DNA from: a virus
UHGV virus genome: UHGV-0140522
Direction: 5' to 3' (one strand)
DNA length: 64,000 bases
Position numbers and translations under genes: made by a program. Below are positions 15,399 through 63,747 of this stretch, one piece after another. The stretch's first letter is position 1. Every line of letters begins with the position of its first letter. The notes beneath the pieces were generated by a model. It did not search any database. It had not been told where the DNA came from and worked only from the letters and a program-made list of their open reading frames with translations.

Positions 15399-16274
15399 TC
15401 AAATTTTTACGTTGGTCAGCGCGGCGATAGCCTTGTCGTGCTTGTTCGCCAGAGAGCAGTACCACTTAACGCGGGTACGGGTTGCGTCTTTGTTCTGAAC
15501 AGTACCGATGTTCTCAACAACGATACCGGCGTTTTCACCGCCATACAGACCAGTCACACCGTTCTCTTCGGACAGGTGCAGGCAGTAGATGCTTGCTTTG
15601 CCAGAATCAGTCGGGATGAAGTCGTTCACGATGAACGGTACACCGTTGTGGCACAGCATCGGACGACCGAAGTTTTCCATCATGATTTCGGACGGGCCGA
15701 GGCTAACGGTACGCAGCAGAGCGCGATAAGCACGCAGGTGCTCGGAACGCATCATGATGCAGTCTGCGCCCAGATCTTTCACCGCGTCGACCAGCTCGTC
15801 GAACATGGAGAAGGTCATGGAAGCGCCTTCGATGTCGATCTTCTGATCGTCGTGCATCAGCTTCGGAATACCGTCGAACGCTTTGTTGTTGGTGCTGGAG
15901 TCGCCCAGAATCAGGTTGCGGCGGAATGCGCGAGCCAGACCTTTCACCTTCTGACGAACCTGGATTGCCAGCTGGTTGTTGGTGTCGGACATAGTGGTCG
16001 CCAGGAATTTGTCGACGTCTACGTCGCCTGCCAGGATACGCAGCTTCGCAACGTGTTCGGTGAAGGTTGCAGCGCCTTCGGTGATGGTGTCGTTCACATC
16101 AATGAAGGTTGCTTCGCTCAGGGTAGCTTCGCGGTTGTAGAGGTATGCCTTAGAATTAATCTTCATGAAAGGCAGAACAGCGAACAGGTCATCGCGATCG
16201 ATGATGGTCTCGATCACACCCTGCTCAAGTTCGTTGTTAGACAGCTTTTCAGCTTCATCACGCAGTAATGGCAT
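15399..16274 (-). CDS. major capsid protein
   Basis: 291-aa ORF directly after the scaffold-like gene and before a strong terminator. Confidence 0.6.
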   Translation of the reverse strand: MPLLRDEAEKLSNNELEQGVIETIIDRDDLFAVLPFMKINSKAYLYNREATLSEATFIDVNDTITEGAATFTEHVAKLRILAGDVDVDKFLATTMSDTNNQLAIQVRQKVKGLARAFRRNLILGDSSTNNKAFDGIPKLMHDDQKIDIEGASMTFSMFDELVDAVKDLGADCIMMRSEHLRAYRALLRTVSLGPSEIMMENFGRPMLCHNGVPFIVNDFIPTDSGKASIYCLHLSEENGVTGLYGGENAGIVVENIGTVQNKDATRTRVKWYCSLANKHDKAIAALTNVKI

Positions 16275-16300
16275 CTTTCATTTCCCTATGATTTAAGATG

Positions 16301-17197
16301 TTACTTGAGTCCGATTTTCCCCAGACCGGAGGTCAACTTATCCATAGTCGACTTGCTCTTCGGCTGGTTTACTTTGTGGGTCGGTTTGCTATTGGAACCA
16401 GCACCCTGCTTGGCTTCGCTGCGCAACAGTGCGTCAGCTTCCGGATCTGCACGCAGAATGCGCTCAATCGCGGATTCGAACGGTAACGGTTTGCCTTCAC
16501 CGTCAACCAGAACTGCACGTTCTTTCTGACCGGCTGGCTTATCAAAGCCCACAACACTACCGTCTTCACCCACTTCGAAATGAGAGCCGTAGATAACGCG
16601 AGCCTTAGCCGGAGTCATCAGAACTTTGTCACGCAGGAAGGCAGAGCCGCTGAAGGAAGCGCCAACAGTCATTTCGACCAGTTGGGCCTTCAGTGCGGCG
16701 TTCTCGCTCTCCAGAGCGGAGTAGCGTTCGTCGCGCTGTGCCAGTTCAGCCTGGTGCGCTTCGATCATCTGCTTTTTCACAGCATCGAACTCACCACGGC
16801 GTTCCAGTTCAGCCTGCTCCGCCTCCCGACGTGCGGTTTCTGCGGCTTGTTCAGCTTCGAGAAGCTGGCGAGCACGCGCCGGGTCAATATCACCGTACTG
16901 AGCCAGCTGATCGGCCAATGTGCGCTCTTTCTCCTTGCGCTTCATGTTCTCTTTCAGCAGGTCAGCACCGGCTTTCTTGGACTTACGCAGTTCTGCCAGC
17001 AACTCTTCCTGAGTCATACCGGCATACTCGTCGTCGTCACCCTTCGGTTGCTCTTTTTGCTCGCCCTGTTTGCCTGGGTCTTGATTGCCCTGCTCATTGT
17101 CTCCAGCAGGAGCACCGCCACCAGCGCCTCCGCGCTCATGCGCTTCAGCTACATCCATCAGGCCACGACGGGCCATAAGCATTTGCCACAGATTCAT
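16301..17197 (-). CDS. scaffolding protein
   Basis: 298-aa highly charged, Ala/Glu/Gln-rich coiled-coil protein (EAEQAAETARREAEQAELERR) between the portal and capsid genes. Confidence 0.6.
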   Translation of the reverse strand: MNLWQMLMARRGLMDVAEAHERGGAGGGAPAGDNEQGNQDPGKQGEQKEQPKGDDDEYAGMTQEELLAELRKSKKAGADLLKENMKRKEKERTLADQLAQYGDIDPARARQLLEAEQAAETARREAEQAELERRGEFDAVKKQMIEAHQAELAQRDERYSALESENAALKAQLVEMTVGASFSGSAFLRDKVLMTPAKARVIYGSHFEVGEDGSVVGFDKPAGQKERAVLVDGEGKPLPFESAIERILRADPEADALLRSEAKQGAGSNSKPTHKVNQPKSKSTMDKLTSGLGKIGLK

Positions 17198-17219
17198 AGA
17201 AATTCCTTTTCGTTACTTA

Positions 17220-18794
17220 TCACTCGGTCTCTTGAGTAGATGAGTCCCCATTCCCTCGGGGTTGATCATGCCCGCTTTCTTGGGCTGTATCTTGATCATA
17301 AGTAAGTACTGACTTATTTTCAAGGGTGTTAAGATCATTTTTTGGAGGAAATTTCAAGAGATCTTTTTGAAATTCCTTCTGCATCGCATCGGAAATGTTC
17401 GGGAAGACCTTCTCGATGAGCATTTCCATCTGATGACGACGAACAGAATCAGGCGCCTGAAGCAGCGACAGTTTCTCGGCAACGGCAAACTCGTCAGTCA
17501 GACCGCGAATGTCGAAACTTTCCGGGTATGCGATCAGAGAGTGGTCTTCATCCAGTTCGACACCCATCCATTTCGCTGCCAGTTGCATCATCTGGCGCTC
17601 TGCCCTTTCGAGACGTTCTGCTTTCGTCACCAGCAGACTGTTAACGCGCTGGAAGTCGTACATCTTCGCTGCGCCCGAAGAGTTATCGATGCCCTGTGCG
17701 TTATCCTGCTTGGTTCGCTCACCTGCCACGCCAACGGAATGGTAGATCTCGTTAATCACCGTCTTAATCGTGGTGATAATCATCTGGGCCTGTTTCGGGT
17801 CCGGAGACAGGTAGAATGGCTGATTACCGCTCTCAGAGTCGAAGGTGAAGACGCGTTTTGTCCCCATTTCGAGCACTTTGGTGTGGTTTTCATCGCCCGG
17901 CAGCAATGACTGAACCGGGATCGCCAGCTGGCTGAATGTCTGATCCTGAATAATCGCGTCAAGGTTCGACAGGTAGTTGGCCACGGCGCGATCAAGATAG
18001 GCGATATCGTCAATCAACGACGGGCTGAAATACGGAGACTCGCTTTCACCAATGCAATCCACCGGGAACACCGGCACCACGCCCAGATTATGCTGGCCGC
18101 TATCCTCCAGAACGACTTTGGCCTGACGGCGACCGCTATTTCCGGAACCTTTCTTCACTTCTTCACGGAACAGATACCACTCGTTTTGCGTCCACAGACG
18201 GTAACGCTGGTATTCCTGTCCGGTTGAAGTGAACGGATCTTCGTCGTCGCGCGCGATTTCAACAATTAGCGCCCACAACATATTGCCGTCTTCATCCCAG
18301 GCAACATCAAGCAGCTGCTGCGGCGAAATCCAGTATGCGTAGGCACGCGCATCATTTTTCTTCTCGTCTGCAACAGACTCAACATCGACGTTCATCGTGC
18401 TGTCCACGACAACCCAGATACGGCCATAAATGGATGATTGCAGATCGATAGCCGCCATAAACGCATCGATGGAGGCGTTCTGGCGCGTGGCTCGCTTCCA
18501 GAAATTGCGGATCTGCTCCGGTGCTTCATCAGTGTTGCGGTGAATGACCTCTTTGAAGAGGTATTTGTTGATGAGGTTTACCACTTCGCGCGTATGGTTG
18601 AAGCGATAAGCGCGTTCCAGGCGCTCTTTGAACTCCTGATCGCCCTCTTTGAAGTAACGGAAGATATTGTCGTTGAACCAGGCACGCCCGCCAGCGTAGG
18701 TGCTGGCGAGGAAGTCCCAATGTTCTTTTTTCTTCTCATATTCAGGGTGGCGTCGTGCCACAAGGTCTTTGATTTGCTTGTCAGTCAATTCCAT
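17220..18794 (-). CDS. portal protein
   Basis: 524-aa ORF immediately downstream of the large terminase; acidic C-terminus. Confidence 0.7.
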   Translation of the reverse strand: MELTDKQIKDLVARRHPEYEKKKEHWDFLASTYAGGRAWFNDNIFRYFKEGDQEFKERLERAYRFNHTREVVNLINKYLFKEVIHRNTDEAPEQIRNFWKRATRQNASIDAFMAAIDLQSSIYGRIWVVVDSTMNVDVESVADEKKNDARAYAYWISPQQLLDVAWDEDGNMLWALIVEIARDDEDPFTSTGQEYQRYRLWTQNEWYLFREEVKKGSGNSGRRQAKVVLEDSGQHNLGVVPVFPVDCIGESESPYFSPSLIDDIAYLDRAVANYLSNLDAIIQDQTFSQLAIPVQSLLPGDENHTKVLEMGTKRVFTFDSESGNQPFYLSPDPKQAQMIITTIKTVINEIYHSVGVAGERTKQDNAQGIDNSSGAAKMYDFQRVNSLLVTKAERLERAERQMMQLAAKWMGVELDEDHSLIAYPESFDIRGLTDEFAVAEKLSLLQAPDSVRRHQMEMLIEKVFPNISDAMQKEFQKDLLKFPPKNDLNTLENKSVLTYDQDTAQESGHDQPRGNGDSSTQETE

Positions 18795-18810
18795 TTGCTT
18801 TTCCTTTCCG

Positions 18811-18837
18811 TTTAGGTAAGTACTTACCTATCTAGAT
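18811..18837. promoter_or_regulatory. perfect 18-bp palindrome TAGGTAAGTACTTACCTA between terL stop and portal start
   Basis: Contains the terL stop codon; 25 nt upstream of the portal ATG. Confidence 0.5.
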
Positions 18838-20084
18838 CCGCCAAGAATAACACGATTTTTCACCGGATACCTACGATGAACCGGATAACCCAACGCATCC
18901 GCACTGTGTTCGATGCCGCCAGTCTTATCCATATCGCGTGAGCCTGGCTTGTAGATCACCTTCTCCAGCGAGTCGATGAGGTGTTTGCACTTCGGATCGA
19001 TGTACAACCGGGTTTCGCCCGAGGCACTCATCAACATGCGGTTCACTGCGTTAACACGGTCTGCGATCGGCGGGTGCTTCTTCGGATAATCGACTCGAAG
19101 GAAACCTTTTTCCTTGAAGATATCGACGTCCGATTCACCGCGTGCGTGCTGGCGATACGCACCTGCCGGGTCAGGGAAGATAGTGACCTGAGACTTCCAG
19201 CGCCAGAAACGACGCTCCAGCTCATCACACACTTCAGCCGTGTTGGAAGAGAACAGCACAACCTCGTCCACGGCCCACAGCTCACCATTTGGCTGCGGCT
19301 GCAGGATGACCGATGACATAGGGTCGATGTTGAAGTCCTGACCAACCCAGATCGGCAGTTTCGGATTGAACTGGAGTGGCTTCACATGCACATTGCGGTC
19401 GAACGGGTAGTAAACGCGTCCGGACATGTTTTCGAAGCTGGCCAGGTATTCCTGCGCGAACGATTTAGGGTCCATATCGTTCTTCGCCGCTTCGATTTCC
19501 GCGCTCGGTACGAACGGAGAATCGGCCGTAACGAACTGCCAGCTCTTCCACTGCCCTTTGCGTTGCAAATCTATGTTCTGACCGATAGTCCACAGCTTGT
19601 GGAACTCGGAGAAGCCTTTTGGCGTACCGATGATCAGCGCACCGCCACGGGTAGAGGACAGTGTCGGACGCAGTACCTTGTACCAGGTGTCAGGCTTCAT
19701 ATCCTGAAATTCATCGAGCACCACGAAGTGCAGTGCCACACCACGAAGCGTATCGGGCTTATCCGCACCTTTCAGCGCGATTTCAGAGCCGTTCTTCAGC
19801 ACAATGGTCATCGTGGTGTCGTTTTTCTTACGAACCCATTTACGAGGCAGAACTTCCTGCAGGTCATCCCACAAGATCTGGCGAGCCATCTGGTAAGTCG
19901 GTGCGACGTACCAGACACGTTGCTTTTTCTCTTTGGCTGCCGCGCGGATGATGGTGGAGATCGACAACCGGGATTTACCCCAGCGTCGACCCGCACACAC
20001 CACTTTGAAACGATGTGGTGACTGGAAGACTTGCATCTGCCCAGAATGCAGCTGTACGAGACTCAGAGACGACGGGATGGCCAT
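18828..20084 (-). CDS. terL: terminase large subunit
   Basis: Walker A VVCAGRRWGKSRLS, Walker B VVLDEFQD, C-terminal acidic nuclease-like motifs; 418 aa. Confidence 0.8.
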   Translation of the reverse strand: MAIPSSLSLVQLHSGQMQVFQSPHRFKVVCAGRRWGKSRLSISTIIRAAAKEKKQRVWYVAPTYQMARQILWDDLQEVLPRKWVRKKNDTTMTIVLKNGSEIALKGADKPDTLRGVALHFVVLDEFQDMKPDTWYKVLRPTLSSTRGGALIIGTPKGFSEFHKLWTIGQNIDLQRKGQWKSWQFVTADSPFVPSAEIEAAKNDMDPKSFAQEYLASFENMSGRVYYPFDRNVHVKPLQFNPKLPIWVGQDFNIDPMSSVILQPQPNGELWAVDEVVLFSSNTAEVCDELERRFWRWKSQVTIFPDPAGAYRQHARGESDVDIFKEKGFLRVDYPKKHPPIADRVNAVNRMLMSASGETRLYIDPKCKHLIDSLEKVIYKPGSRDMDKTGGIEHSADALGYPVHRRYPVKNRVILGGSR

Positions 20085-20086
20085 AG

Positions 20087-20728
20087 TTAGACGCTCCCAT
20101 CACTTTCATCACCAGACGCGTCAGAATCGCCCTCTGCTTCGCTCAGTGCTTCCTCTTCGAGCGACTCAAGCAGATCGTCATCAATCAGATCCGGCTCATC
20201 ATCTTCCTTACGCAGCTGCGCCACCTGGGAAGGCGTAAGTTCGCCAAATACCAGGTTCGGGATTTCGTCGTCTTCGTTCTCTGCGCGATCCATACCGAGC
20301 GCTTTCGAGGATATTTCGAAGCACTTAGCGAGTGTGCCGCTGGCACGCTGGAGACTCTTCAGGTCATCTTCGATGGTTGCCAGTGGCTTGCCGTCCTTCT
20401 TGGCTGTGGCCACCTCATGCATCACCATTCGACCGAGTGCGAACGCCCAATCGTCGTAACGAGTCCGGCGCTCTTCGATTTTCTCTGCACGCGCCTTTGC
20501 ACGCAGCTCTGCGTCGGATTTGAGCGACTCGCGCACCATCTTCCCAACGGAGTCCGCGCCTTTCTCTAATCCACGCTTTTTGAAATGTCTGGAGAGCGTT
20601 TCACGACGAATGCCGTACTCTTCCTCCAGCTTGGAGAGTGTGTATTCACCGGAAGTCCACTTTGCTTCGGCTTCTGCCCACTCAGCTGGCGTCAGGCGAG
20701 TTTTGCTCTCGTCTTTTTCTACAGTCAT
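20087..20728 (-). CDS. terS: terminase small subunit (putative)
   Basis: 213-aa protein with an N-terminal HTH-like segment and acidic C-terminal tail, translationally coupled to terL. Confidence 0.5.
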   Translation of the reverse strand: MTVEKDESKTRLTPAEWAEAEAKWTSGEYTLSKLEEEYGIRRETLSRHFKKRGLEKGADSVGKMVRESLKSDAELRAKARAEKIEERRTRYDDWAFALGRMVMHEVATAKKDGKPLATIEDDLKSLQRASGTLAKCFEISSKALGMDRAENEDDEIPNLVFGELTPSQVAQLRKEDDEPDLIDDDLLESLEEEALSEAEGDSDASGDESDGSV

Positions 20729-20767
20729 AGATCCCTCTAAAACACTCAGAGCGCATCCTTGCGCTCC

Positions 20768-20820
20768 TAAACAACTTGTTTAATTCTGTGCCTAACCAAT
20801 TTGTTTTCTGGGTGTTTAAA
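20768..20820 (-). promoter_or_regulatory. split early-motif-like element upstream of terS
   Basis: TAAACAACTTGTTTA...CCAATTTGTTTTCTGGGTGTTTA. Confidence 0.4.
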
Positions 20821-20921
20821 ACCGGGCTGGGGAGTATTCAGAGCCTGCTTCCGTATATATTTAATAAGTCACTTAGTATTTATATATACGGAAGCAGGCT
20901 CTCAAACTGGCTCCCAGACCG
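20805..20921. repeat. large palindrome block, copy 1
   Basis: Perfect 20-bp arms GAGCCTGCTTCCGTATATAT / ATATATACGGAAGCAGGCTC (20841-20860 / 20882-20901) around a 21-nt spacer TTAATAAGTCACTTAGTATTT, then TCAAACTGGCTCCCAGACCG; 113 nt upstream of the terS start. Confidence 0.65.
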
Positions 20922-20923
20922 AC

Positions 20924-21190
20924 TTACATCACCAGTAATTTGGCTCTGGCACGACCTAACGTGGTCAGTCCCAGCGTGCGACGGTGGTAGCCGGAATCAC
21001 CGCGCTGGCGGCACATTCCTTTCTCCACCAGCCCCTTTTTCACCAGTGCGCGGATAGAGAACTGCATACTCTGTTTGGTCGTTTTGTACGGCAGCACTTC
21101 AAGCAGCTCGTCCAGATCGAGCAGATGCCCACGCTCATGGCCTAAATTGATGGTTTTGATGATGTCTTTTTGTTTGTCGGTCAACGTCAT
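20924..21190 (-). CDS. winged-helix transcriptional regulator (MarR/PadR-like)
   Basis: 88-aa protein with a predicted HTH (LEVLPYKTTKQSMQFSIRALVKKGLV). It lies directly upstream of the large palindrome block and terS, so it may act as a late regulator. Confidence 0.4.
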   Translation of the reverse strand: MTLTDKQKDIIKTINLGHERGHLLDLDELLEVLPYKTTKQSMQFSIRALVKKGLVEKGMCRQRGDSGYHRRTLGLTTLGRARAKLLVM

Positions 21191-21199
21191 GGCAAATCC

Positions 21200-22099
21200 T
21201 TATGCCGGTAATGCAATTTCAAGAGGTTTATTCAAAGGCTGTTTGTCGAATGCCAGCAGTGGCAACGTGTCCGGCAGCTGACGACCAAAGTCCGGGTTTC
21301 GGTACACGCCATACAGCGGAGAGGTGAAGCTCAGGTTGTGAATGTCCTTGAGCAGCTTCACGATGCTGGCCTCGTCCACCAGGCTGTCGGCAATGTCCTG
21401 AATCGTCGTGCCACGATTACGCCCGGCTTTGGCCAGGGAACTGTTCTTGTGGTAGTCAGCGACCAAATCACGCAGCGCACGACGACGGCGAGACTCACTC
21501 ATGGCGAACAGCTCTTTGACGATCGCTTCGTTGTCACCAGGGTCGGAACGGAAATGACGCTGGAAGACGCGCAACGCACTCTCGTAGCTCTTCGGACGCT
21601 CCGGACGGATGAACTGGAACCCTGCTTTCATGGCGAACGGGTTGTATTTGCTCATCGACGACTGGATCTCGATGATTGGCCGGTCGTGCATCCTGCTAAC
21701 CAGGTTAATCATTCGATAGGAGACGCCGACGCCGCGGTACTGAGTGTCCACAACGGAACGGCTGATCACTGCAAAGTTGTTGTTCACGTACCGGCCCCAA
21801 TACTGGTTGGCCACGGTGGTATTGGTGGTTGGCTTCAGCTTAGGAAACATGCGATGGCGAGGCGCCAGCAGCAGTTTCGGGTAAGCCATAACCACGACGC
21901 CCACCAGCCGGTCGTCCAGTTCGCAGCGATAATACGTTGGCGCGAACGGCTTACCATCCGTCTTGTAGTGCAGCGACTTCAGCGCGTGCCAGTCTTCAAC
22001 CGTGCCTTTGGTAACGGTCATACGCTCCAGAAAGTCCAGATGACGCGGGAACTCTTCCGGGCGGTAGCGTTTGATGATGATGTCTGTCATGTCGATCAC
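21200..22099 (-). CDS. GNAT-fold-like protein (acyl-CoA N-acyltransferase motif), last gene of the ParB-ABC operon
   Basis: Motif VVDTQYRGVGVSYRMINLV resembles the GNAT CoA-binding Q/RxxGxG/A block; 4-nt start overlap with the upstream ORF. Confidence 0.3.
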   Translation of the reverse strand: MIDMTDIIIKRYRPEEFPRHLDFLERMTVTKGTVEDWHALKSLHYKTDGKPFAPTYYRCELDDRLVGVVVMAYPKLLLAPRHRMFPKLKPTTNTTVANQYWGRYVNNNFAVISRSVVDTQYRGVGVSYRMINLVSRMHDRPIIEIQSSMSKYNPFAMKAGFQFIRPERPKSYESALRVFQRHFRSDPGDNEAIVKELFAMSESRRRRALRDLVADYHKNSSLAKAGRNRGTTIQDIADSLVDEASIVKLLKDIHNLSFTSPLYGVYRNPDFGRQLPDTLPLLAFDKQPLNKPLEIALPA

Positions 22100-22350
22100 C
22101 TGCGCTCGATATTGGCATTGATGAAGTCCAGGCGAAGCGATTCCATCGCCCCAACCATGACGTATGGACGCCCACCGTTATGCCAGCAATCCAGAACACT
22201 GCCGTCGTTGTTAATCATCAGCAGCGCCAGGCTCTGGCTTTTGCCTTCTCTGGCGTACTGGAGTGCTTCTTCCAGCAGGCGGATGACTTCAAGGTTGTTG
22301 TTATCTGCCTCTTTCGATGGTTTCAGCTCTACGATCTTCAAATCAGGCAT
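22096..22350 (-). CDS. hypothetical small protein (84 aa) in the ParB-ABC operon
   Basis: Overlapping stop/start on both sides indicates translational coupling. Confidence 0.4.
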   Translation of the reverse strand: MPDLKIVELKPSKEADNNNLEVIRLLEEALQYAREGKSQSLALLMINNDGSVLDCWHNGGRPYVMVGAMESLRLDFINANIERR

Positions 22351-22981
22351 ATTCCACCTTCACGCGTTCTTTGTAGTGCTTGGTAATCTGCATATCCGGG
22401 CGCAGCGCGTTCTTCAGGTCTTCGTGGGTCGTCGCCACCATTACCGTCGCACCAACCTTTCGAGCGGCACGCTGGAGGTTCGACGCCACAACCTGAGCGG
22501 TTACACGGTCGAGAACAGCGCCAAATTCGTCGGCTGCCCAGACTTTGGCGCCTGACTCGATCAGCTTGGCAATCTTGAGGCGGTATTTCTGGCCGTCAGA
22601 CATCTCGGATGGCTTGCGCACAAAGAGATAGGCGTCATTCAATCCGGCCATAGACAGCAGCCCCAGCGCTTCGCTGGTGGTTTTGCCCAGCTGGTCGATG
22701 ACGTTAACCTCATTGTCGAAGGTAAAGTCATCGATGGAGGCTACAGAAAGCCCTTCATCCTTCATCTGGCGTTGCAGTTCGCGCAGCACAACGGATTTGC
22801 CGGAACCGGATTGGCCGGTGATGTACACCACATCGCCCTGCTTCACTTCCAGCTCCAGATTGTCGTAAAGCGTCCACTCTTTTTCGTCCAGGCCAAGACC
22901 GAACGATTCGGCAATCTCCAGCGTGCGCGTGGTTTTGTTCACGCGGGTCTGAAACGATACATTGATGGTGTATTTGCTCAC
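22343..22981 (-). CDS. compact ABC-type ATPase (212 aa)
   Basis: Walker A YITGQSGSGKS, ABC signature-like MSDGQKYRLKIA, Walker B KVWAADEFGAVLD, H-loop VATTHEDL; no transmembrane or coiled-coil partner domain. Confidence 0.65.
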   Translation of the reverse strand: MSKYTINVSFQTRVNKTTRTLEIAESFGLGLDEKEWTLYDNLELEVKQGDVVYITGQSGSGKSVVLRELQRQMKDEGLSVASIDDFTFDNEVNVIDQLGKTTSEALGLLSMAGLNDAYLFVRKPSEMSDGQKYRLKIAKLIESGAKVWAADEFGAVLDRVTAQVVASNLQRAARKVGATVMVATTHEDLKNALRPDMQITKHYKERVKVEYA

Positions 22982-23679
22982 GCAGCCAGCTCCCCTGAAG
23001 AAACTTTCTCCGCATATGCCACGAAAGCGTCTACCCCGCTCTCTCCCGTGATTTCTTCCATGTGGGCAAGCAAATCCCCAACCACAATGGCAGAGCCAGC
23101 AGGGAGCGTTTTAAAGCCCAATACGTCGATGACGCGGACTTCTTCAGAGGCTACTTCGCGACTGATCTCGGTGTGCTCTTCTTTCTGGCGTTCCGTCTCT
23201 TCGCCCAGATCGAGCACCAGAGAGCCGGTTTCCATCTCTTCGGTCATGCTGCCGACAAGCACGTTCAGCTCGCGCTCTTCAAAACCGAAGACCTCGACGT
23301 CGCCCAGCACCAGGGATTCCAGTTCCTGCTGCAATTTGATGGCGTCGTAGTCAATACTGGCCAGGCGGTTGTCTTCCAGACGCTTCGCCTTCACTTCTTC
23401 TTCGCTCAGATCGTCGCGAACGATGACCGGCACACGCTCCAGACCAGCCAGAAGTGCCGCCTCGCGACGACCGTGGCCAGTAATGATGACGTCGTGCTTG
23501 TCGACCGTGATCGGCTGGTCAAAACCGCGCTTTTTGATGGCGGCCGCCAGGTCGCGGATCTGCTGTTCGTCATGTTTTTTGGCGTTCATCTCATACGGGA
23601 TGAGTTCTGCCGGGTTTCGATAGACGATTTCAAAGTTTTTGGTCATTACATACGCTCCTTGTAGTAGTCGACCAGCCAC
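22978..23679 (-). CDS. ParB/Srx-fold N-terminal domain protein with acidic C-terminal half (ParB-like 1)
   Basis: ParB box motifs (IVYRNPAELIPYEMNAKKH; ITGHGRREAA) followed by a Glu/Asp-rich region. Confidence 0.6.
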   Translation of the reverse strand: MAGRLLQGAYVMTKNFEIVYRNPAELIPYEMNAKKHDEQQIRDLAAAIKKRGFDQPITVDKHDVIITGHGRREAALLAGLERVPVIVRDDLSEEEVKAKRLEDNRLASIDYDAIKLQQELESLVLGDVEVFGFEERELNVLVGSMTEEMETGSLVLDLGEETERQKEEHTEISREVASEEVRVIDVLGFKTLPAGSAIVVGDLLAHMEEITGESGVDAFVAYAEKVSSGELAA

Positions 23680-24344
23680 ACCAGGGCTTCCCCGGCGTTC
23701 TCCATTTCGTTACCGGTATTGATTCCCTGCTCTTTGATGATGGTTTTGATGGTGTCGGCGACGCGATCTGACGCATCAAACGTCACTTTGAAGCGCATCG
23801 TCTGGTGTTCAGCGCCGACTCGCTCGGTTTTCTCGCGTTTGTCCTCATCGACCGGCTCGTCATCGCCACGGGAGAGCGCTTCCAGCGCTTCAAGATCGAT
23901 AACGGACGCTTTGGCGAGTGTTGCCGCCATTTCGTCGTCATACGGGGCGATATCGGACAACCGGTAGTCGATTTCAGACTGGATTTCTTCGATTAAGCGC
24001 TGCAAAGCGACCTGATCGTCTTCGCCGTAGCGTTCGTTATCGACGAGAGACATCTGTTTGGCCACCAGGTCGTTAATTTTGCCCACGGAGATGACGGGAA
24101 CCGTTGAAATGCCCTGCTCCATCGCGGCACGCCAGCGGTGTTCGCCACCGAGGATCTCAAAAATGCCCCCGTCCAGCTCCCGCGCCAGAATTGGCTTAAA
24201 AAAGCCCAATTTTTCGATCGAGCCTTTCAGTTTTTCGAAGTTTTGCGCCCCAACGGAGTTGGTATTCCAGGGATTCGGACGCAGGTTCGCGACTTCCACC
24301 TGCAGAATCGTAATTTTCACATCCATAATTCTGATACAATCCAT
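23646..24344 (-). CDS. ParB/Srx-fold N-terminal domain protein (ParB-like 2), first gene of operon; probable start 24326
   Basis: EVANLRPNPWNTN and EILGGEHRWRAA ParB-type motifs; acidic central region. Confidence 0.6.
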   Translation of the reverse strand: MDCIRIMDVKITILQVEVANLRPNPWNTNSVGAQNFEKLKGSIEKLGFFKPILARELDGGIFEILGGEHRWRAAMEQGISTVPVISVGKINDLVAKQMSLVDNERYGEDDQVALQRLIEEIQSEIDYRLSDIAPYDDEMAATLAKASVIDLEALEALSRGDDEPVDEDKREKTERVGAEHQTMRFKVTFDASDRVADTIKTIIKEQGINTGNEMENAGEALVWLVDYYKERM

Positions 24345-24408
24345 TGTATAAGTACTTACTTACTATAATAGCCAATTACCATACAAAAGGCACGAAGGAA
24401 AGAGGTTT
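24345..24408. promoter_or_regulatory. 64-bp divergent control region (ParB operon / helicase) containing palindrome TAAGTACTTA
   Basis: cattGTATAAGTACTTACTTACtataatagcc; TATAAT-like hexamers on both strands. Confidence 0.45.
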
Positions 24409-25968
24409 ATGACAGTTCGGATTGTATCGAATGCAGTCAATGCGCTGATTTCTGGCGCTGATGACAACGTGAAACGGCTCGTTCAGGAGATGTTGAGCTA
24501 TGAAGTGGAGGCTGGTGACTGGAAAGGAACCAGCACGATGTTCAACTGGAGCAAAAACGCGTTCCCGGCTGGGTTTGCGAAGCCAGTTGCAGCCAACCTT
24601 CTGAAAGCTGGCATCAAATGCGTGCATGTGCGCAAGGAAAAAGCCCCCGCGCTTGGCAAGCCGAACCCGGTAGTTAACCCATTCCCGTATAACCCGGACT
24701 ATGCGTATCAGGATCAGACTGTGGAAACACTGGTGCGAGAAGGGATGATGATTGCCCAGATTGCGACGGGTGGCGGTAAATCGAACGTAGCGTGTAAGGC
24801 AGCTGCTCGCATTGGTCGTATGACGCTGTTTTTAACCACGCGCTCGGTTCTGATGTTCCAGATGGCAGAGAACTTCCAGAAATCCATCGACTACCGCGCG
24901 GAGAATGGCGAGCCGTGGCTGAAAGGTCAGAAAGTTGGGGTGATTGGATCTGGTGAGTTCCAGGTCTCGCGCCATATCAACGTTGCCACGGTGCAGACCC
25001 TGGCCAGTTTTCTCGAAGAGCCACCGCGCGACGCATCACCGGAGAAAAAACAGTACCACCTGAAGCGCCGGGAACTGGTTAAGCGCTTTCTGTCCAGCGT
25101 TTCTCTGCTGATTCTGGAAGAGGCACACGAATCATCTGGTTCAAACTTCTACGATATCGCCCGGTTGTGCATCAATGCCGATTACCGTCTGGCGCTGACA
25201 GCTACGCCGTTCATGAAGGACTCGACCGAAGCAAATATGCGTCTCATGGCCGTTGCCGGTCGCATTGAGATAAAGGTAACGGAGAAATATTTGATCGATC
25301 GAGGTATTTTAGCGAAACCATACTTTCTATATCATAAAATCGCGTACACTCCAGACGAGGTGCGGATTAGGGCCGAACTTGCTTCGAAACACCTGAACTT
25401 TCGGGTTGGAATGAGTACGGCTTACCAGAAAGCCTATCAGTTAGGCATCGTTTACAATCTGGGCCGCAACGAGGCTATTGTGCGCGAAGCGTTAATGTAC
25501 AAAAGTCACGGTCTGAACTGTATGACGCTGGTTCGTTTGAAGCGTCATGGTCAGATTTTGATGGAAATGATGAAGGAAAGCGGCCTGAAGGTCGATTTCA
25601 TCTACGGAGAATCAAACCAGACTACCCGACAAGCAAAGCTCAACAGTCTGGCGGCAGGCAAGATAGATGTTCTGATTGGTTCAACCATTCTGGATGTTGG
25701 TGTCGACGTTCCAAGCGTAGGGGCGGTGATTCTGGGTGGTGGCGGCAAAGCCGAAGTTGAGATGCGCCAACGTGTTGGTCGCGGTCTTCGAGCCAAAAAG
25801 AATCAGGCTAACGTGTGCTTTATTACCGACTTTATCGACGTGAGCAACAAATATCTCATGTCGCATTCATATGAGCGGAAGCACATTATCGATACGACGC
25901 CTGGGTTTGCCGAGGGCGTTTTGCCGGTGGGTAGCACATTCGATTTCACTGTTTTGAATAGAGAGTAA
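24409..25968 (+). CDS. SF2 helicase (DEAH-like)
   Basis: Motif I AQIATGGGKSNVA, motif II LILEEAHE, motif VI QRVGRGLRA; 519 aa; divergent from the ParB operon across a 64-bp gap. Confidence 0.8.
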   Translation: MTVRIVSNAVNALISGADDNVKRLVQEMLSYEVEAGDWKGTSTMFNWSKNAFPAGFAKPVAANLLKAGIKCVHVRKEKAPALGKPNPVVNPFPYNPDYAYQDQTVETLVREGMMIAQIATGGGKSNVACKAAARIGRMTLFLTTRSVLMFQMAENFQKSIDYRAENGEPWLKGQKVGVIGSGEFQVSRHINVATVQTLASFLEEPPRDASPEKKQYHLKRRELVKRFLSSVSLLILEEAHESSGSNFYDIARLCINADYRLALTATPFMKDSTEANMRLMAVAGRIEIKVTEKYLIDRGILAKPYFLYHKIAYTPDEVRIRAELASKHLNFRVGMSTAYQKAYQLGIVYNLGRNEAIVREALMYKSHGLNCMTLVRLKRHGQILMEMMKESGLKVDFIYGESNQTTRQAKLNSLAAGKIDVLIGSTILDVGVDVPSVGAVILGGGGKAEVEMRQRVGRGLRAKKNQANVCFITDFIDVSNKYLMSHSYERKHIIDTTPGFAEGVLPVGSTFDFTVLNRE

Positions 25969-60732: not shown

Positions 60733-61227
60733 TTACTTCGGATCGCGAAACAGCATCTGCGTGCCTTTGGGGGACGTGTCAAAAAGGAGAAAACCTCTGC
60801 GTTTTAGCATGTCGGCCATTTGCGAGGATTTGACATAGCACTTCGCCATCATCGGCTGGATCGGGTTTGAATCGATCATGTCGGACACCAGCATTGACCC
60901 ATAGCCTTTCCCGCGTAGCTCTTTGACGATACTGACGGCACGGAGTTCAAGTCGTGGCGCACCGGTTGGATCGAGTGCGGCACAGAGCCAGATTAGCCCT
61001 GCTTTTTTGTCATCAGAACGGCGCAGCAGGATGTAGATATAATGCCCGGAGTATTGGCCCTGCTCGTTCGTCTTGATGGCTAGCCTGGTCTGCTTCTCAA
61101 AGGTTTTACCCCCCTTTGATGTGAGGATCTCTTCGTAGAAGTGACCCTTGCGTGCGCCGTCTTCGAACTCACCCATGATAAATGGCATGTCTGCCACAGT
61201 TGCTGCCCTTGAATAAAATTCACTCAT
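60733..61227 (-). CDS. GNAT-family N-acetyltransferase
   Basis: ELRGKGYGSMLVSDMI (Q/RxxGxG/A CoA-binding motif); 164 aa. Confidence 0.6.
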   Translation of the reverse strand: MSEFYSRAATVADMPFIMGEFEDGARKGHFYEEILTSKGGKTFEKQTRLAIKTNEQGQYSGHYIYILLRRSDDKKAGLIWLCAALDPTGAPRLELRAVSIVKELRGKGYGSMLVSDMIDSNPIQPMMAKCYVKSSQMADMLKRRGFLLFDTSPKGTQMLFRDPK

Positions 61228-62691: not shown

Positions 62692-63747
62692 ATGAGCGAA
62701 AACGGCAATAAAAACATAGCGATCGTTGAAGCATTCTCAGAAACAGACAAAAAGACAGGCGAAGTTGTTACGTTAGTTCCTAACACCAACAACACAGTTC
62801 AGCCCGTTGCTCTGATGCGTCTTGGTCTCTTCGTTCCAACGCTGAAATCGACCGCCAGGGGCAGAAAGGGGCAAATGGTCTCTATGGACGCCTCTGCTGA
62901 ACTCAAACAGCTGTCTCTGGCCAAAGCTGAAGGGTACGAGGACATAAGGATCTCCGGTGTTCGTCTGGATATGGATAACGACTTCAAAACGTGGGTTGGC
63001 ATCATCCACGCGTTCGCTAAGCACAAGGTTGTTGGCGACACTGTCACGTTACCGTTCGTCGAGTTCGTCAGGCTCTGTGGTATACCAACGGCCAGATCGT
63101 CAGCGAAGTTACGTAAGCGCCTGGACAGTTCTCTAACTCGTATCGCCACAAACACGATCTCATTCCGCAGTAAAGGCTCTGATGAGTATTACGTGACGCA
63201 CCTTGTGCAGACAGCAAAGTACAGCACCAAGAACGACACGGTCTCTCTGCAGGCTGATCCTAAGATTTTCGAACTCTACCAGTTCGACAAAAAGGTTCTT
63301 CTGCAACTCCGGGCAATCAACGAACTCTCCAGAAAAGAATCCGCGCAGGCGCTCTACACCTTCATCGAAAGTTTGCCTCCTGACCCGGCACCAATCTCGT
63401 TGGCTCGCTTACGCGCCAGACTTAACTTAACCAGCCGCACCATCACCCAGAACGCGACAGTCAGGAAGGCGATGGAGCAGCTGCGGGAGATCGGCTATCT
63501 CGATTACACCGAAGTGAAGCGCGGCAGCTCGGTCTACTTCATCATCCACTATAGGCGGCCGAAATTACGCCCAGCACTGCCACCAACTAAAGCTGCGCCT
63601 GAAGAACCAGAAGACATCTTGCCTGGTGATGATCAGGAGGACATTATCGATGTTGTTCCTGAAGAAAAAGAGGGTGAGATGGTCATGTTGAGCAAGGAAG
63701 AACTGGCGATTCTCGAAGAGCTGCGCAAGGCAAAGGCTCGCAAATAG
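62692..63747 (+). CDS. repA: replication initiator RepA (P1 / RepFIB family)
   Basis: N-terminal [27 protein letters not shown] and [25 protein letters not shown] blocks match P1/RepFIB RepA as I recall them; flanked by iterons. Confidence 0.8.

Follow-up and report, generated by a model that had tools for sequence, protein, structure and literature searches.

Phage ParB-like proteins that lack a helix-turn-helix (HTH) domain are obligatory activators of DNA T-dioxygenases, the 5mYOX enzymes (10.1101/2025.08.14.668559; PNAS 2026, PMC13229309; O'Toole et al.). The ParB fold, which binds CTP, ATP or GTP, has also been found joined to phage methyltransferases and to a bacterial acetyltransferase, the latter fusion binding GTP (PMC12704722). 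DpdB and DndB are ParB-superfamily members that serve DNA-modification systems. Among GNAT-fold enzymes, gp48 of phage PaMx11 (PMC8989533) and Mom (PMC13219725) act on DNA polymers, and acetylation by NAT10 is ATP-dependent, as cited in PMC8989533. Here we describe a locus encoding proteins of both folds in the virus genome UHGV-0140522, of which we analysed one stretch of 64,000 nucleotides (the window). Two ParB-fold proteins (ParB1 and ParB2), an ABC ATPase and a 299-aa GNAT-fold protein are encoded there by coupled genes on the minus strand between positions 21200 and 24344, and this four-gene core is conserved next to the terminase genes. We tentatively favour the reading that an NTP-gated ParB adaptor carries an ATP-driven acyltransferase, which would modify phage DNA before packaging.

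The mark of a ParB-assisted modification module, an HTH-less ParB-fold protein encoded with or joined to an enzyme, is found at this locus. The activator of the T-dioxygenases, like ParB1 and ParB2, is built of an NTP-binding domain at the N-terminus, an unstructured linker and a small domain at the C-terminus, and its gene lies beside that of its enzyme and often co-occurs with terminase genes, as in the module. The partner here, however, is an ABC ATPase plus a GNAT protein and not an Fe/2-oxoglutarate dioxygenase, and there are two paralogous ParBs instead of one. The ParB–methyltransferase and ParB–acetyltransferase fusions follow the same principle, a ParB fold with a nucleic-acid- or acyl-transfer enzyme, whereas the module has its enzyme in separate polypeptides and an extra ABC ATPase. 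ParB of the ParABS systems, DpdB and DndB share with the module ParBs an N-terminal ParB/Srx fold with conserved box II and box III, but the module has no ParA, HTH, TGT or Dnd genes, and for Dpd and Dnd components a scan against PADLOC-DB returned nothing beyond a generic P-loop match.

On the enzyme side, TmcA and NAT10 couple an NTPase module to a nucleobase-acetylating GNAT, as we propose for the module, but with a helicase-like ATPase instead of an ABC ATPase and with RNA as substrate (cytidine N4-acetylation). Mom and PaMx11 gp48 resemble the proposed enzyme in being phage-encoded GNAT-fold proteins that act on DNA after replication. Mom differs in using charged tRNA and in needing neither an ATPase nor a ParB, and its sequence relation to the module protein is marginal; gp48 differs in its target, a pre-installed aminomethyl group, and no genes of such a pathway are annotated in Salmonella phage SSU5, a close relative of our replicon. 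Proteins of the COG2401/MK0520 (phrog_11143) family have both the xSDGQKYR signature and the GNAT motifs of the window proteins; compared with them the window version is split, has a slot for a variable open reading frame (ORF) where the two halves part, and comes joined with two ParB genes.

A coupled operon in an SSU5-type phage-plasmid

The replicon is an SSU5-type phage-plasmid, the region being 98.3% identical to SSU5, 97.6% identical to Yersinia pestis pMT1 and 100% identical to a 112.6-kb Citrobacter plasmid. The original prediction described a five-gene operon, and all five of its minus-strand ORFs are present: ParB1 (23646..24344, 232 aa), ParB2 (22978..23646), the ABC ATPase (22343..22981, 212 aa), the small ORF p84 (22096..22350) and the GNAT-fold acyltransferase (21200..22099). 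Each gene overlaps the next. The ParB1/ParB2 junction is TAATG, a 1-nt overlap provided that ParB2 begins at the ATG of Met12 (23646), the start that PGAP annotates in pMT1 and the likely one; the longest ORF (22978-23679, 233 aa) begins at a GTG at 23679. The ParB2/ABC junction is GTGA (4 nt), the ABC/p84 junction ATGCCTGA (8 nt), and the p84/GNAT junction again GTGA (4 nt), with an alternative GNAT start at an ATG 5 nt downstream, which PGAP chooses. A sixth gene, p88, begins 9 nt past the GNAT stop. The coupling of the five genes thus stood, but the coupled unit comprises at least six genes, p88 included, and p84 lies outside the conserved core.

ParB1 and ParB2 are full-length paralogues without a helix-turn-helix

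Both ParB proteins matched Pfam ParB_N (ParB1 E=9e-14, 51.7 bits; ParB2 E=1e-8, 35.5 bits; cut-off 26.3) and one PHROG each (phrog_723, E=3e-86, for ParB1; phrog_930, E=4e-115, for ParB2). The GxxRxxA boxes described earlier are intact, as GEHRWRA at residue 67 of ParB1 and GHGRREA at residue 68 of ParB2, which is of a 'GHGR' subtype that phage ParB–DNA-methyltransferase fusions also have at their N-terminus. The C-terminal halves were likewise found to be acidic, with isoelectric points (pI) of 4.4 and 4.1, and the two families are acidic throughout (median pI 4.4 and 4.6). Invariant residues of the ParB1 family include W26, N27, N29, G66, G67, H69, R70, D102 and N103, and the box II arginine (GGEHR / GHGR) and the box III D-N are invariant in both families.

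In ParB1 a ParB/Srx-fold NTP-binding domain (residues ~6-116) is connected by an acidic linker to a small, conserved domain at the C-terminus. The orthologue-family profiles matched structures of ParB/Noc/Spo0J CTPases over their first ~116 positions only (6-116 for the ParB1 family), with the exception of 4umk, whose match reaches position 142 of the ParB1 profile. Neither protein had an HTH_ParB Pfam match, and the PDB profile alignments end at ~116-142; the ParA-binding motif [LFI]G[KR]G[LFI] is absent from both sequences. Searches of the PDB with the family profiles found no solved relative of the C-terminal parts, and our guess is that these are ribbon-helix-helix-like domains. A single-sequence structure prediction of ParB1 reached a pLDDT of 38 and was discarded.

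Profile–profile comparison aligned the ParB1 and ParB2 families over 204 columns (hhalign probability 99.2%, E=3.6e-19), which identifies the two proteins, on alignment grounds, as full-length paralogues, and this paralogy suggests that they may form a heterodimer. ParB2 also matched the N-terminal part of phrog_498, a DNA methyltransferase (E=8e-33), and the N-terminus of the PADLOC model MTase_II (E=7e-18); by these matches it is closest to the N-terminal ParB domain of phage ParB–DNA-methyltransferase fusions. In the annotation of phage nickie ParB2 is labelled 'DNA methyltransferase', a misleading label carried over from fused relatives.

The fold also bears on a different proposal, that one or both ParB/Srx proteins are nucleases working with the terminase at cos or pac, at the genome ends, with the ABC and GNAT proteins as regulators. 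Some ParB/Srx members are indeed nucleases, according to PMC10853773. Several PHROG relatives of the ParBs are labelled 'ParB-like partition nuclease', and the operon is followed, ahead of the TerS-like gene, by a large inverted repeat. We nevertheless hold a nuclease complex to be quite improbable: the ParBs keep the NTP-binding boxes of a CTPase-type fold, their profiles match ParB/Noc CTPases, the packaging nuclease of tailed phages is supplied by TerL, and the conserved GNAT and the fusions described below would be left unexplained.

The ABC ATPase and the GNAT-fold protein as two halves of one family

The 212-aa ATPase is a nucleotide-binding domain only, with matches to Pfam ABC_tran (E=4e-13) and phrog_293 (E=6.5e-59). 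The Walker A (GQSGSGKS), SDGQKYR and Walker B (DEF) motifs that had been noticed in it are present and, together with the H-loop, conserved across the family. It had been classed as ABC-type and not ParA-type, and the CbiA/ParA model indeed reached only E=0.0025, below the cut-off. The domain is nearest to soluble or transporter-type nucleotide-binding domains, ABC-F included. Its gene is the best conserved of the module, with 53-65% identity between alpha- and gammaproteobacterial loci (54-63% for TerL).

In the 299-aa protein the GNAT region spans about residues 27-165 and is followed by a helical C-terminal domain (172-299). The protein is basic (pI 9.7), as is the family uniformly (median pI 9.4). 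Motif A, which binds the pyrophosphate of coenzyme A (CoA) and has the form R/Q-x-x-G-x-G/A, is present as R122-G-V-G125-V-S, with R122 and G125 invariant among 31 diverse members. We obtained no convincing Pfam match for the protein, and a PDB sequence search with the family profile gave no match even at E<=10. The top Foldseek matches include NAT10, TmcA and Mu Mom, all weak (E about 1e-4); the likeness to NAT10 and TmcA is one of fold only (TM about 0.33), and Mom ranked first among viral models in the fold comparison. A specific sequence kinship with Mom was rejected as too weak (2 of 23 members, E>=5e-4), leaving a link at the level of the fold. The protein is a GNAT-fold protein, for which acyl-CoA-dependent transfer is predicted. 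Its public label 'ABC transporter ATP-binding subunit' in SSU5, nickie and the Rhizobium phages is wrong, having been carried over from fused relatives.

Searches for homologues of the 212-aa ATPase, and a scan of viral contigs with the split GNAT, returned almost solely near-identical enterobacterial copies. A search of 1.84 billion cluster representatives with the GNAT family profile yielded 908 relatives, whose architectures we counted in the best 150: 32 were stand-alone GNATs, 66 were ABC–GNAT fusions of ~450-560 aa, and six were ParB–Zn-ribbon–ABC–GNAT fusions of 634-699 aa. The fused proteins carry the source name 'ABC-type ATPase with predicted acetyltransferase domain' (COG2401/MK0520 type). 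In the window, ABC and GNAT are two genes with p84 between them; the window ABC is nevertheless homologous to the N-terminal half of the fused proteins, both having the xSDGQKYR signature. The profile phrog_11143 matches the ATPase (profile positions 2-184) and the GNAT protein (205-252), phmmer with the two window proteins matched 80 of 80 fused genes, and all 23 fused members compared matched both phrog_293 and phrog_886. Judged by this homology of both parts, the window ABC and GNAT proteins are the N-terminal and C-terminal halves of one family, of COG2401/MK0520 type.

The triple fusions extend this to the ParBs. Their N-termini align with the ParB1 family (hhalign 98.3%, E=1.7e-14) and with the ParB2 family (98.5%, E=2.1e-15), and one of them, P0264, matches in a single chain the PHROGs of ParB1, ParB2, the ATPase and the GNAT protein. 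The existence of such natural ParB–ABC–GNAT fusions argues that the ParB, ABC and GNAT proteins act together as one machine.

The fused ABC–GNAT family has more than 2,000 database proteins and occurs in hundreds of archaeal proviruses as well as in Firmicutes prophages, its members coming mostly from metagenome-assembled genomes of Thermoproteota, Nitrososphaerota and Bathyarchaeia and some from Firmicutes. Our literature search on COG2401 and the 'ABC-type ATPase fused…' label found no paper; the family is known only as an annotation label and is uncharacterised, and the split form, the union with two paralogous ParBs, the triple fusions and the terminase linkage appear to be undescribed. 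Some relatives carry an intein (Hint/LAGLIDADG) inside the ABC domain and others are joined to a family-B DNA polymerase (PolB) or to a TFIIB repeat (P0163, P0168, P0193, P0155), which indicates archaeal or viral DNA-metabolism contexts. Three further relatives (P0194, P0205 and P0238; 878-908 aa) have ~450 extra N-terminal residues ahead of ABC–GNAT, containing a Walker A/B P-loop (weak KAP/Pox_A32 matches) and a putative PD-(D/E)xK nuclease-like segment; the N-terminal 394 aa of P0194 (878 aa) gave no PDB sequence match.

An enzyme of this make-up could also have a target other than DNA, such as tRNA, ribosome components, a host immune protein or a signalling nucleotide, and serve counter-defence or host takeover, the ABC protein acting like soluble ABC-F- or ABCE-type factors. 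The position of the ABC domain nearest to soluble or transporter-type domains, ABC-F among them, would suit this, as would the existence of GNAT toxins and RNA acetyltransferases, with TmcA and NAT10 among the fold matches, and a placement at archaeal provirus ends that resembles the positions of accessory genes. We think it unlikely all the same, because conservation within the lineage is universal, relatives are fused to ParB-fold domains and to PolB or carry an intein in the ABC domain, and the PADLOC matches show only generic P-loop similarity.

The four-gene core is conserved beside the terminase genes

Gene order was compared in 26 related genome loci from gamma- and alphaproteobacteria, among which it is kept at ~40% identity. 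This synteny, together with PHROG E-values of 1e-46 to 1e-166, shows that the genes are real and not chance ORFs. The conserved order is a divergent helicase, ParB1, ParB2, ABC, variable ORFs in some, GNAT, p88 where present, p213 and TerL; of these, ParB1, ParB2, ABC and GNAT make up the conserved core, which the small p88 usually follows. The helicase is divergent in all full-length related loci, TerL lies downstream of the module in all loci and p213 always precedes TerL, a position that suggests p213 to be the small terminase subunit, TerS. In Xenorhabdus hominickii (L005:9947-12190) and Chelativorans composti (L019:9898-12487) the TerL homologue is interrupted by ~0.9-1.3 kb, for which an intein, an intron or an inserted homing endonuclease could account.

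Within the phage collection, the GNAT gene and a TerL of >=54% identity coincide exactly, both being found in the same 31 records. Among these are Pseudomonas nickie and Nican01 as well as Rhizobium RHEph10-like, Stenotrophomonas and Xanthomonas phages of 105-122 kb (PMC11256456). The module is also core in phages not known as plasmids, such as the siphoviruses Pseudomonas phage nickie and Rhizobium RHEph10. A co-occurrence analysis across SSU5-like relatives had been proposed in the original prediction; it found the four-gene core in 31/31 phage records of the lineage, always beside putative TerS (p213) and TerL, and the module intact in 782 enterobacterial plasmid records, Y. pestis pMT1 among them. 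Carriers include many plasmids of 106-115 kb from Salmonella, Klebsiella, Escherichia and Enterobacter, and the related phage records include one named after the carbapenemase KPC, vB_Kpn_1825-KPC53.

The fused form keeps similar company. Of 80 archaeal proviral contigs, most have the fused ABC–GNAT gene directly after TerL, and archaeal proviruses often end, as far as viral genes can be recognised, with this gene. Several IMG/VR contigs end exactly on its stop codon (3' ends of L034, L039, L054-L056, L060, L062, L067, L095 and L106); we rejected a genome terminus at this gene, since the pattern reflects the trimming of proviruses at gene boundaries. In Heliorestis and Fredinandcohnia prophages the fused gene stands just before an Amidoligase_2–(GGACT)–TerL–portal block, and in a 96-kb phage contig it adjoins the gene for Pol III alpha. 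In the Firmicutes prophages (L111:11534-13338; L114:11567-12722) an Amidoligase_2 gene follows the fused gene, in Heliorestis with a GGACT/AIG2 cyclotransferase as well; these neighbours hint at amide or peptide chemistry in the same pathway.

Such a setting would also fit a packaging or maturation helper, in which a ParB-guided ABC–GNAT acetylates DNA-bound proteins, either of the host nucleoid or the phage's own terminase, portal or DNA-binding proteins, and so clears or primes replicated DNA. The constant position of the module beside p213 and TerL as part of the lineage core, the conservation of the ABC gene at the level of TerL, and the Amidoligase_2 and GGACT neighbours in Firmicutes prophages all speak for a protein target. 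The packaging-associated function named among the earlier candidates is retained since the family is repeatedly found beside TerL. A helper that acetylates proteins seems to us rather unlikely even so: no packaging system is known to need an acetyltransferase, some relatives are found at a distance from TerL, in replication modules or at the ends of proviruses, and the ParB-fold partners documented so far assist DNA-modifying enzymes.

Partition, transport and known defence systems

The earlier view that the operon is not the plasmid partition system held up. Of the ParABS features that we compared, the ParB N-terminal fold is present; an adjacent ParA with a deviant Walker A, an HTH and a ParA-binding motif are not. 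SSU5 has a ParA-like gene elsewhere in its genome, and pMT1 has the same operon at 16197-19341 and, apart from it, separate genes for a ParA-sized 'AAA family ATPase' and a 'ParB family protein' at 61836-64009, which we take to be its P1/P7-family par system. Such a system of pMT1 was reportedly characterised by Youngren et al. in 2000. The module ATPase shows no clear homology to ParA, and the module occurs in non-plasmid siphoviruses. The replication gene that had been placed 38 kb away is a Rep3-type RepA of a plasmid prophage at 62692-63747 (+); in the same part of the window a second, small GNAT of 164 aa is encoded at 60733-61227 (-), with an Acetyltransf_1 match at E=1e-3.

A second segregation device was among the functions originally suggested, and it is disfavoured. 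That idea, like an ABC transporter or 'auxiliary metabolic gene', draws on pipeline family names only ('ParB-like partition protein', 'ABC transporter ATP-binding subunit') and is in our estimate barely credible. It is already contradicted by the lack of ParA, HTH and ParA-binding motif, by the separate par loci in SSU5 and pMT1, by the presence of the module in phages not known as plasmids, and, for a transporter, by an operon of ParB-fold, GNAT and small soluble ORFs that contains no permease or substrate-binding-protein gene and in which the 'ATP-binding subunit' label is wrong for the GNAT. The motifs of a transporter nucleotide-binding domain are present, but the ATPase of relatives is joined to a GNAT and not to a transmembrane domain, and a transporter was rejected.

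It had also been stated that the operon matches no named multi-gene system. The PADLOC-DB scan agrees, as it gave nothing system-specific and thus no component of a known anti-phage defence: the only matches were MTase_II, through its ParB N-domain, and generic P-loop models (mad3, mad8, PtuA, BrxD), with none for p84 or the 299-aa GNAT. A scan of the operon proteins against NCBIfam returned nothing specific.

Small open reading frames and the surroundings of the core

The slot between the ABC and GNAT genes is variable. p84 matched phrog_796 (E=4e-46) and had no Pfam, NCBIfam or PADLOC match; tblastn found it in near-identical loci only, other lineages have different small ORFs in its place, and in the Xenorhabdus loci (L005, L007) it is missing and the ABC and GNAT genes are directly adjacent. 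Going by this distribution among homologous loci, p84 is a variable, dispensable accessory insert and not a core component.

p88 (20924..21190, minus strand) encodes a small basic protein (pI 10.1) with a match to phrog_900 (E=5e-49) and tblastn matches in ~18/26 loci. It also matches LexA_DNA_bind (E=0.14) and the C-terminal end of a PADLOC CARF model (E=3e-4), both weakly, and may be a winged-helix DNA binder. Between p88 and the TerS-like gene lies an inverted repeat (20837..20905) with arms of 24 nt each (20837-20860 / 20882-20905) that are 96% complementary around an AT-rich centre of 21 nt. It sits 20-90 bp downstream of the operon and is the sole inverted repeat noticed nearby. Inverted repeats of different sequence occupy the same position in L004 (14-nt arms), L011 (35-nt) and L108 (34-nt). 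For the repeat of the window a cos/pac site, a p88 operator and a terminator are all candidate roles. In GenBank, the linear records of SSU5 and Cyrano have their ends within this inverted repeat, and that of Nican01 begins 15 bp before TerL; we rejected the ends of the first two records as independent support for a cos site, as the records may simply be co-oriented.

Further downstream on the minus strand follow p213 (20087..20728; phrog_867, E=2e-108), a DNA-binding protein and putative TerS encoded directly upstream of TerL, and TerL itself (18828..20084), which is 99.8% identical to that of SSU5. At the upstream border, a divergent intergenic region of 64 bp (24345..24408), presumed to hold the operon promoter, separates ParB1 from the gene for a superfamily 2 (UvsW-like) helicase (24409..25968, plus strand; Pfam DEAD, ResIII and Helicase_C). 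The operon thus lies between the packaging genes and a divergent helicase across a 64-bp gap, as originally described. A sigma-70 consensus scan of 20000-25000 found no site, and the operon promoter is accordingly a presumption.

A possible ParB-guided DNA acylation machine

DNA modification or anti-defence is the best supported of the three functions that the original prediction had offered. In the mechanism that we propose, the four core proteins would form one nucleoprotein-directed enzyme machine, made together with the packaging genes. ParB1 and ParB2, which lack an HTH and keep their NTP-binding boxes, would be an NTP-gated heterodimeric adaptor or clamp, and the ABC ATPase and the GNAT protein would together be the equivalent of the natural single-chain ABC–GNAT enzyme. 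Dimerisation of the ABC heads, driven by ATP, may then put the basic GNAT subunits on DNA, and the GNAT would move an acyl group, most likely acetyl from acyl-CoA, onto a base of replicated phage DNA before it is packaged. DNA acylated in this way would be shielded from nucleases in the next host.

A single machine acting on DNA is supported by the ABC–GNAT and ParB–ABC–GNAT fusions and the translational coupling, and by the intact ABC, GNAT CoA-binding and ParB box II/III motifs; complex formation and the use of NTP and CoA would follow from this reading. DNA as the acceptor, which may give the modification a protective role, is suggested by a DNA-centred context (p213, TerL and helicase in 26 loci and 31 phages; Pol III alpha and PolB for the fused form), by the likeness of ParB2 to the ParB domain of ParB–DNA-methyltransferase fusions, and by the charge of the partners, the GNAT family being uniformly basic and the ParBs uniformly acidic. 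It is consistent, too, with nearest structural neighbours that include the nucleic-acid-modifying GNATs NAT10, TmcA and Mom, and with the published precedents of ParB-activated T-dioxygenases, ParB-fold fusions and DNA-acting GNATs.

Four points weigh on the other side. We know of no modified base in SSU5-like phages. For most of the fused ABC–GNAT genes there is no ParB gene within 8 kb, so that a ParB is not a universal partner. The strict lineage-core status of the module, with an ABC gene conserved like TerL, fits an essential role in replication or packaging better than one as an anti-restriction accessory, and the Amidoligase_2/GGACT neighbours in Firmicutes prophages could point to peptide or protein modification.

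DNA acylation by the module may also be put in a more far-reaching form, which we consider possible but doubtful: a DNA hypermodification machinery of a new class, in which a ParB1/ParB2 clamp would move ABC–GNAT along replicated viral DNA and leave acyl groups genome-wide before packaging, for example acetyl on an exocyclic amine of C or A; archaeal and Firmicutes viruses would have the stand-alone form of the enzyme, the fused ABC–GNAT. If true, this would be the first direct base acylation of DNA that depends on acyl-CoA and ATP, and it would be common to phage-plasmids (pHCM2, pMT1, SSU5) and archaeal viruses.

Public annotation files this widespread module under 'partition protein' and 'ABC transporter', and SSU5, which carries it, is cultivable. 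Should DNA prove to be modified, the module would represent a new chemistry, ATP-coupled acylation, and a new client for ParB-fold NTPases that steer DNA-modifying enzymes, and it could help to account for the passage of these phage-plasmids from one genus to another across restriction barriers. Proviruses of Thermoproteota, Nitrososphaerota and Bathyarchaeia commonly carry the fused form, and the function therefore probably matters to tailed viruses of two domains of life.

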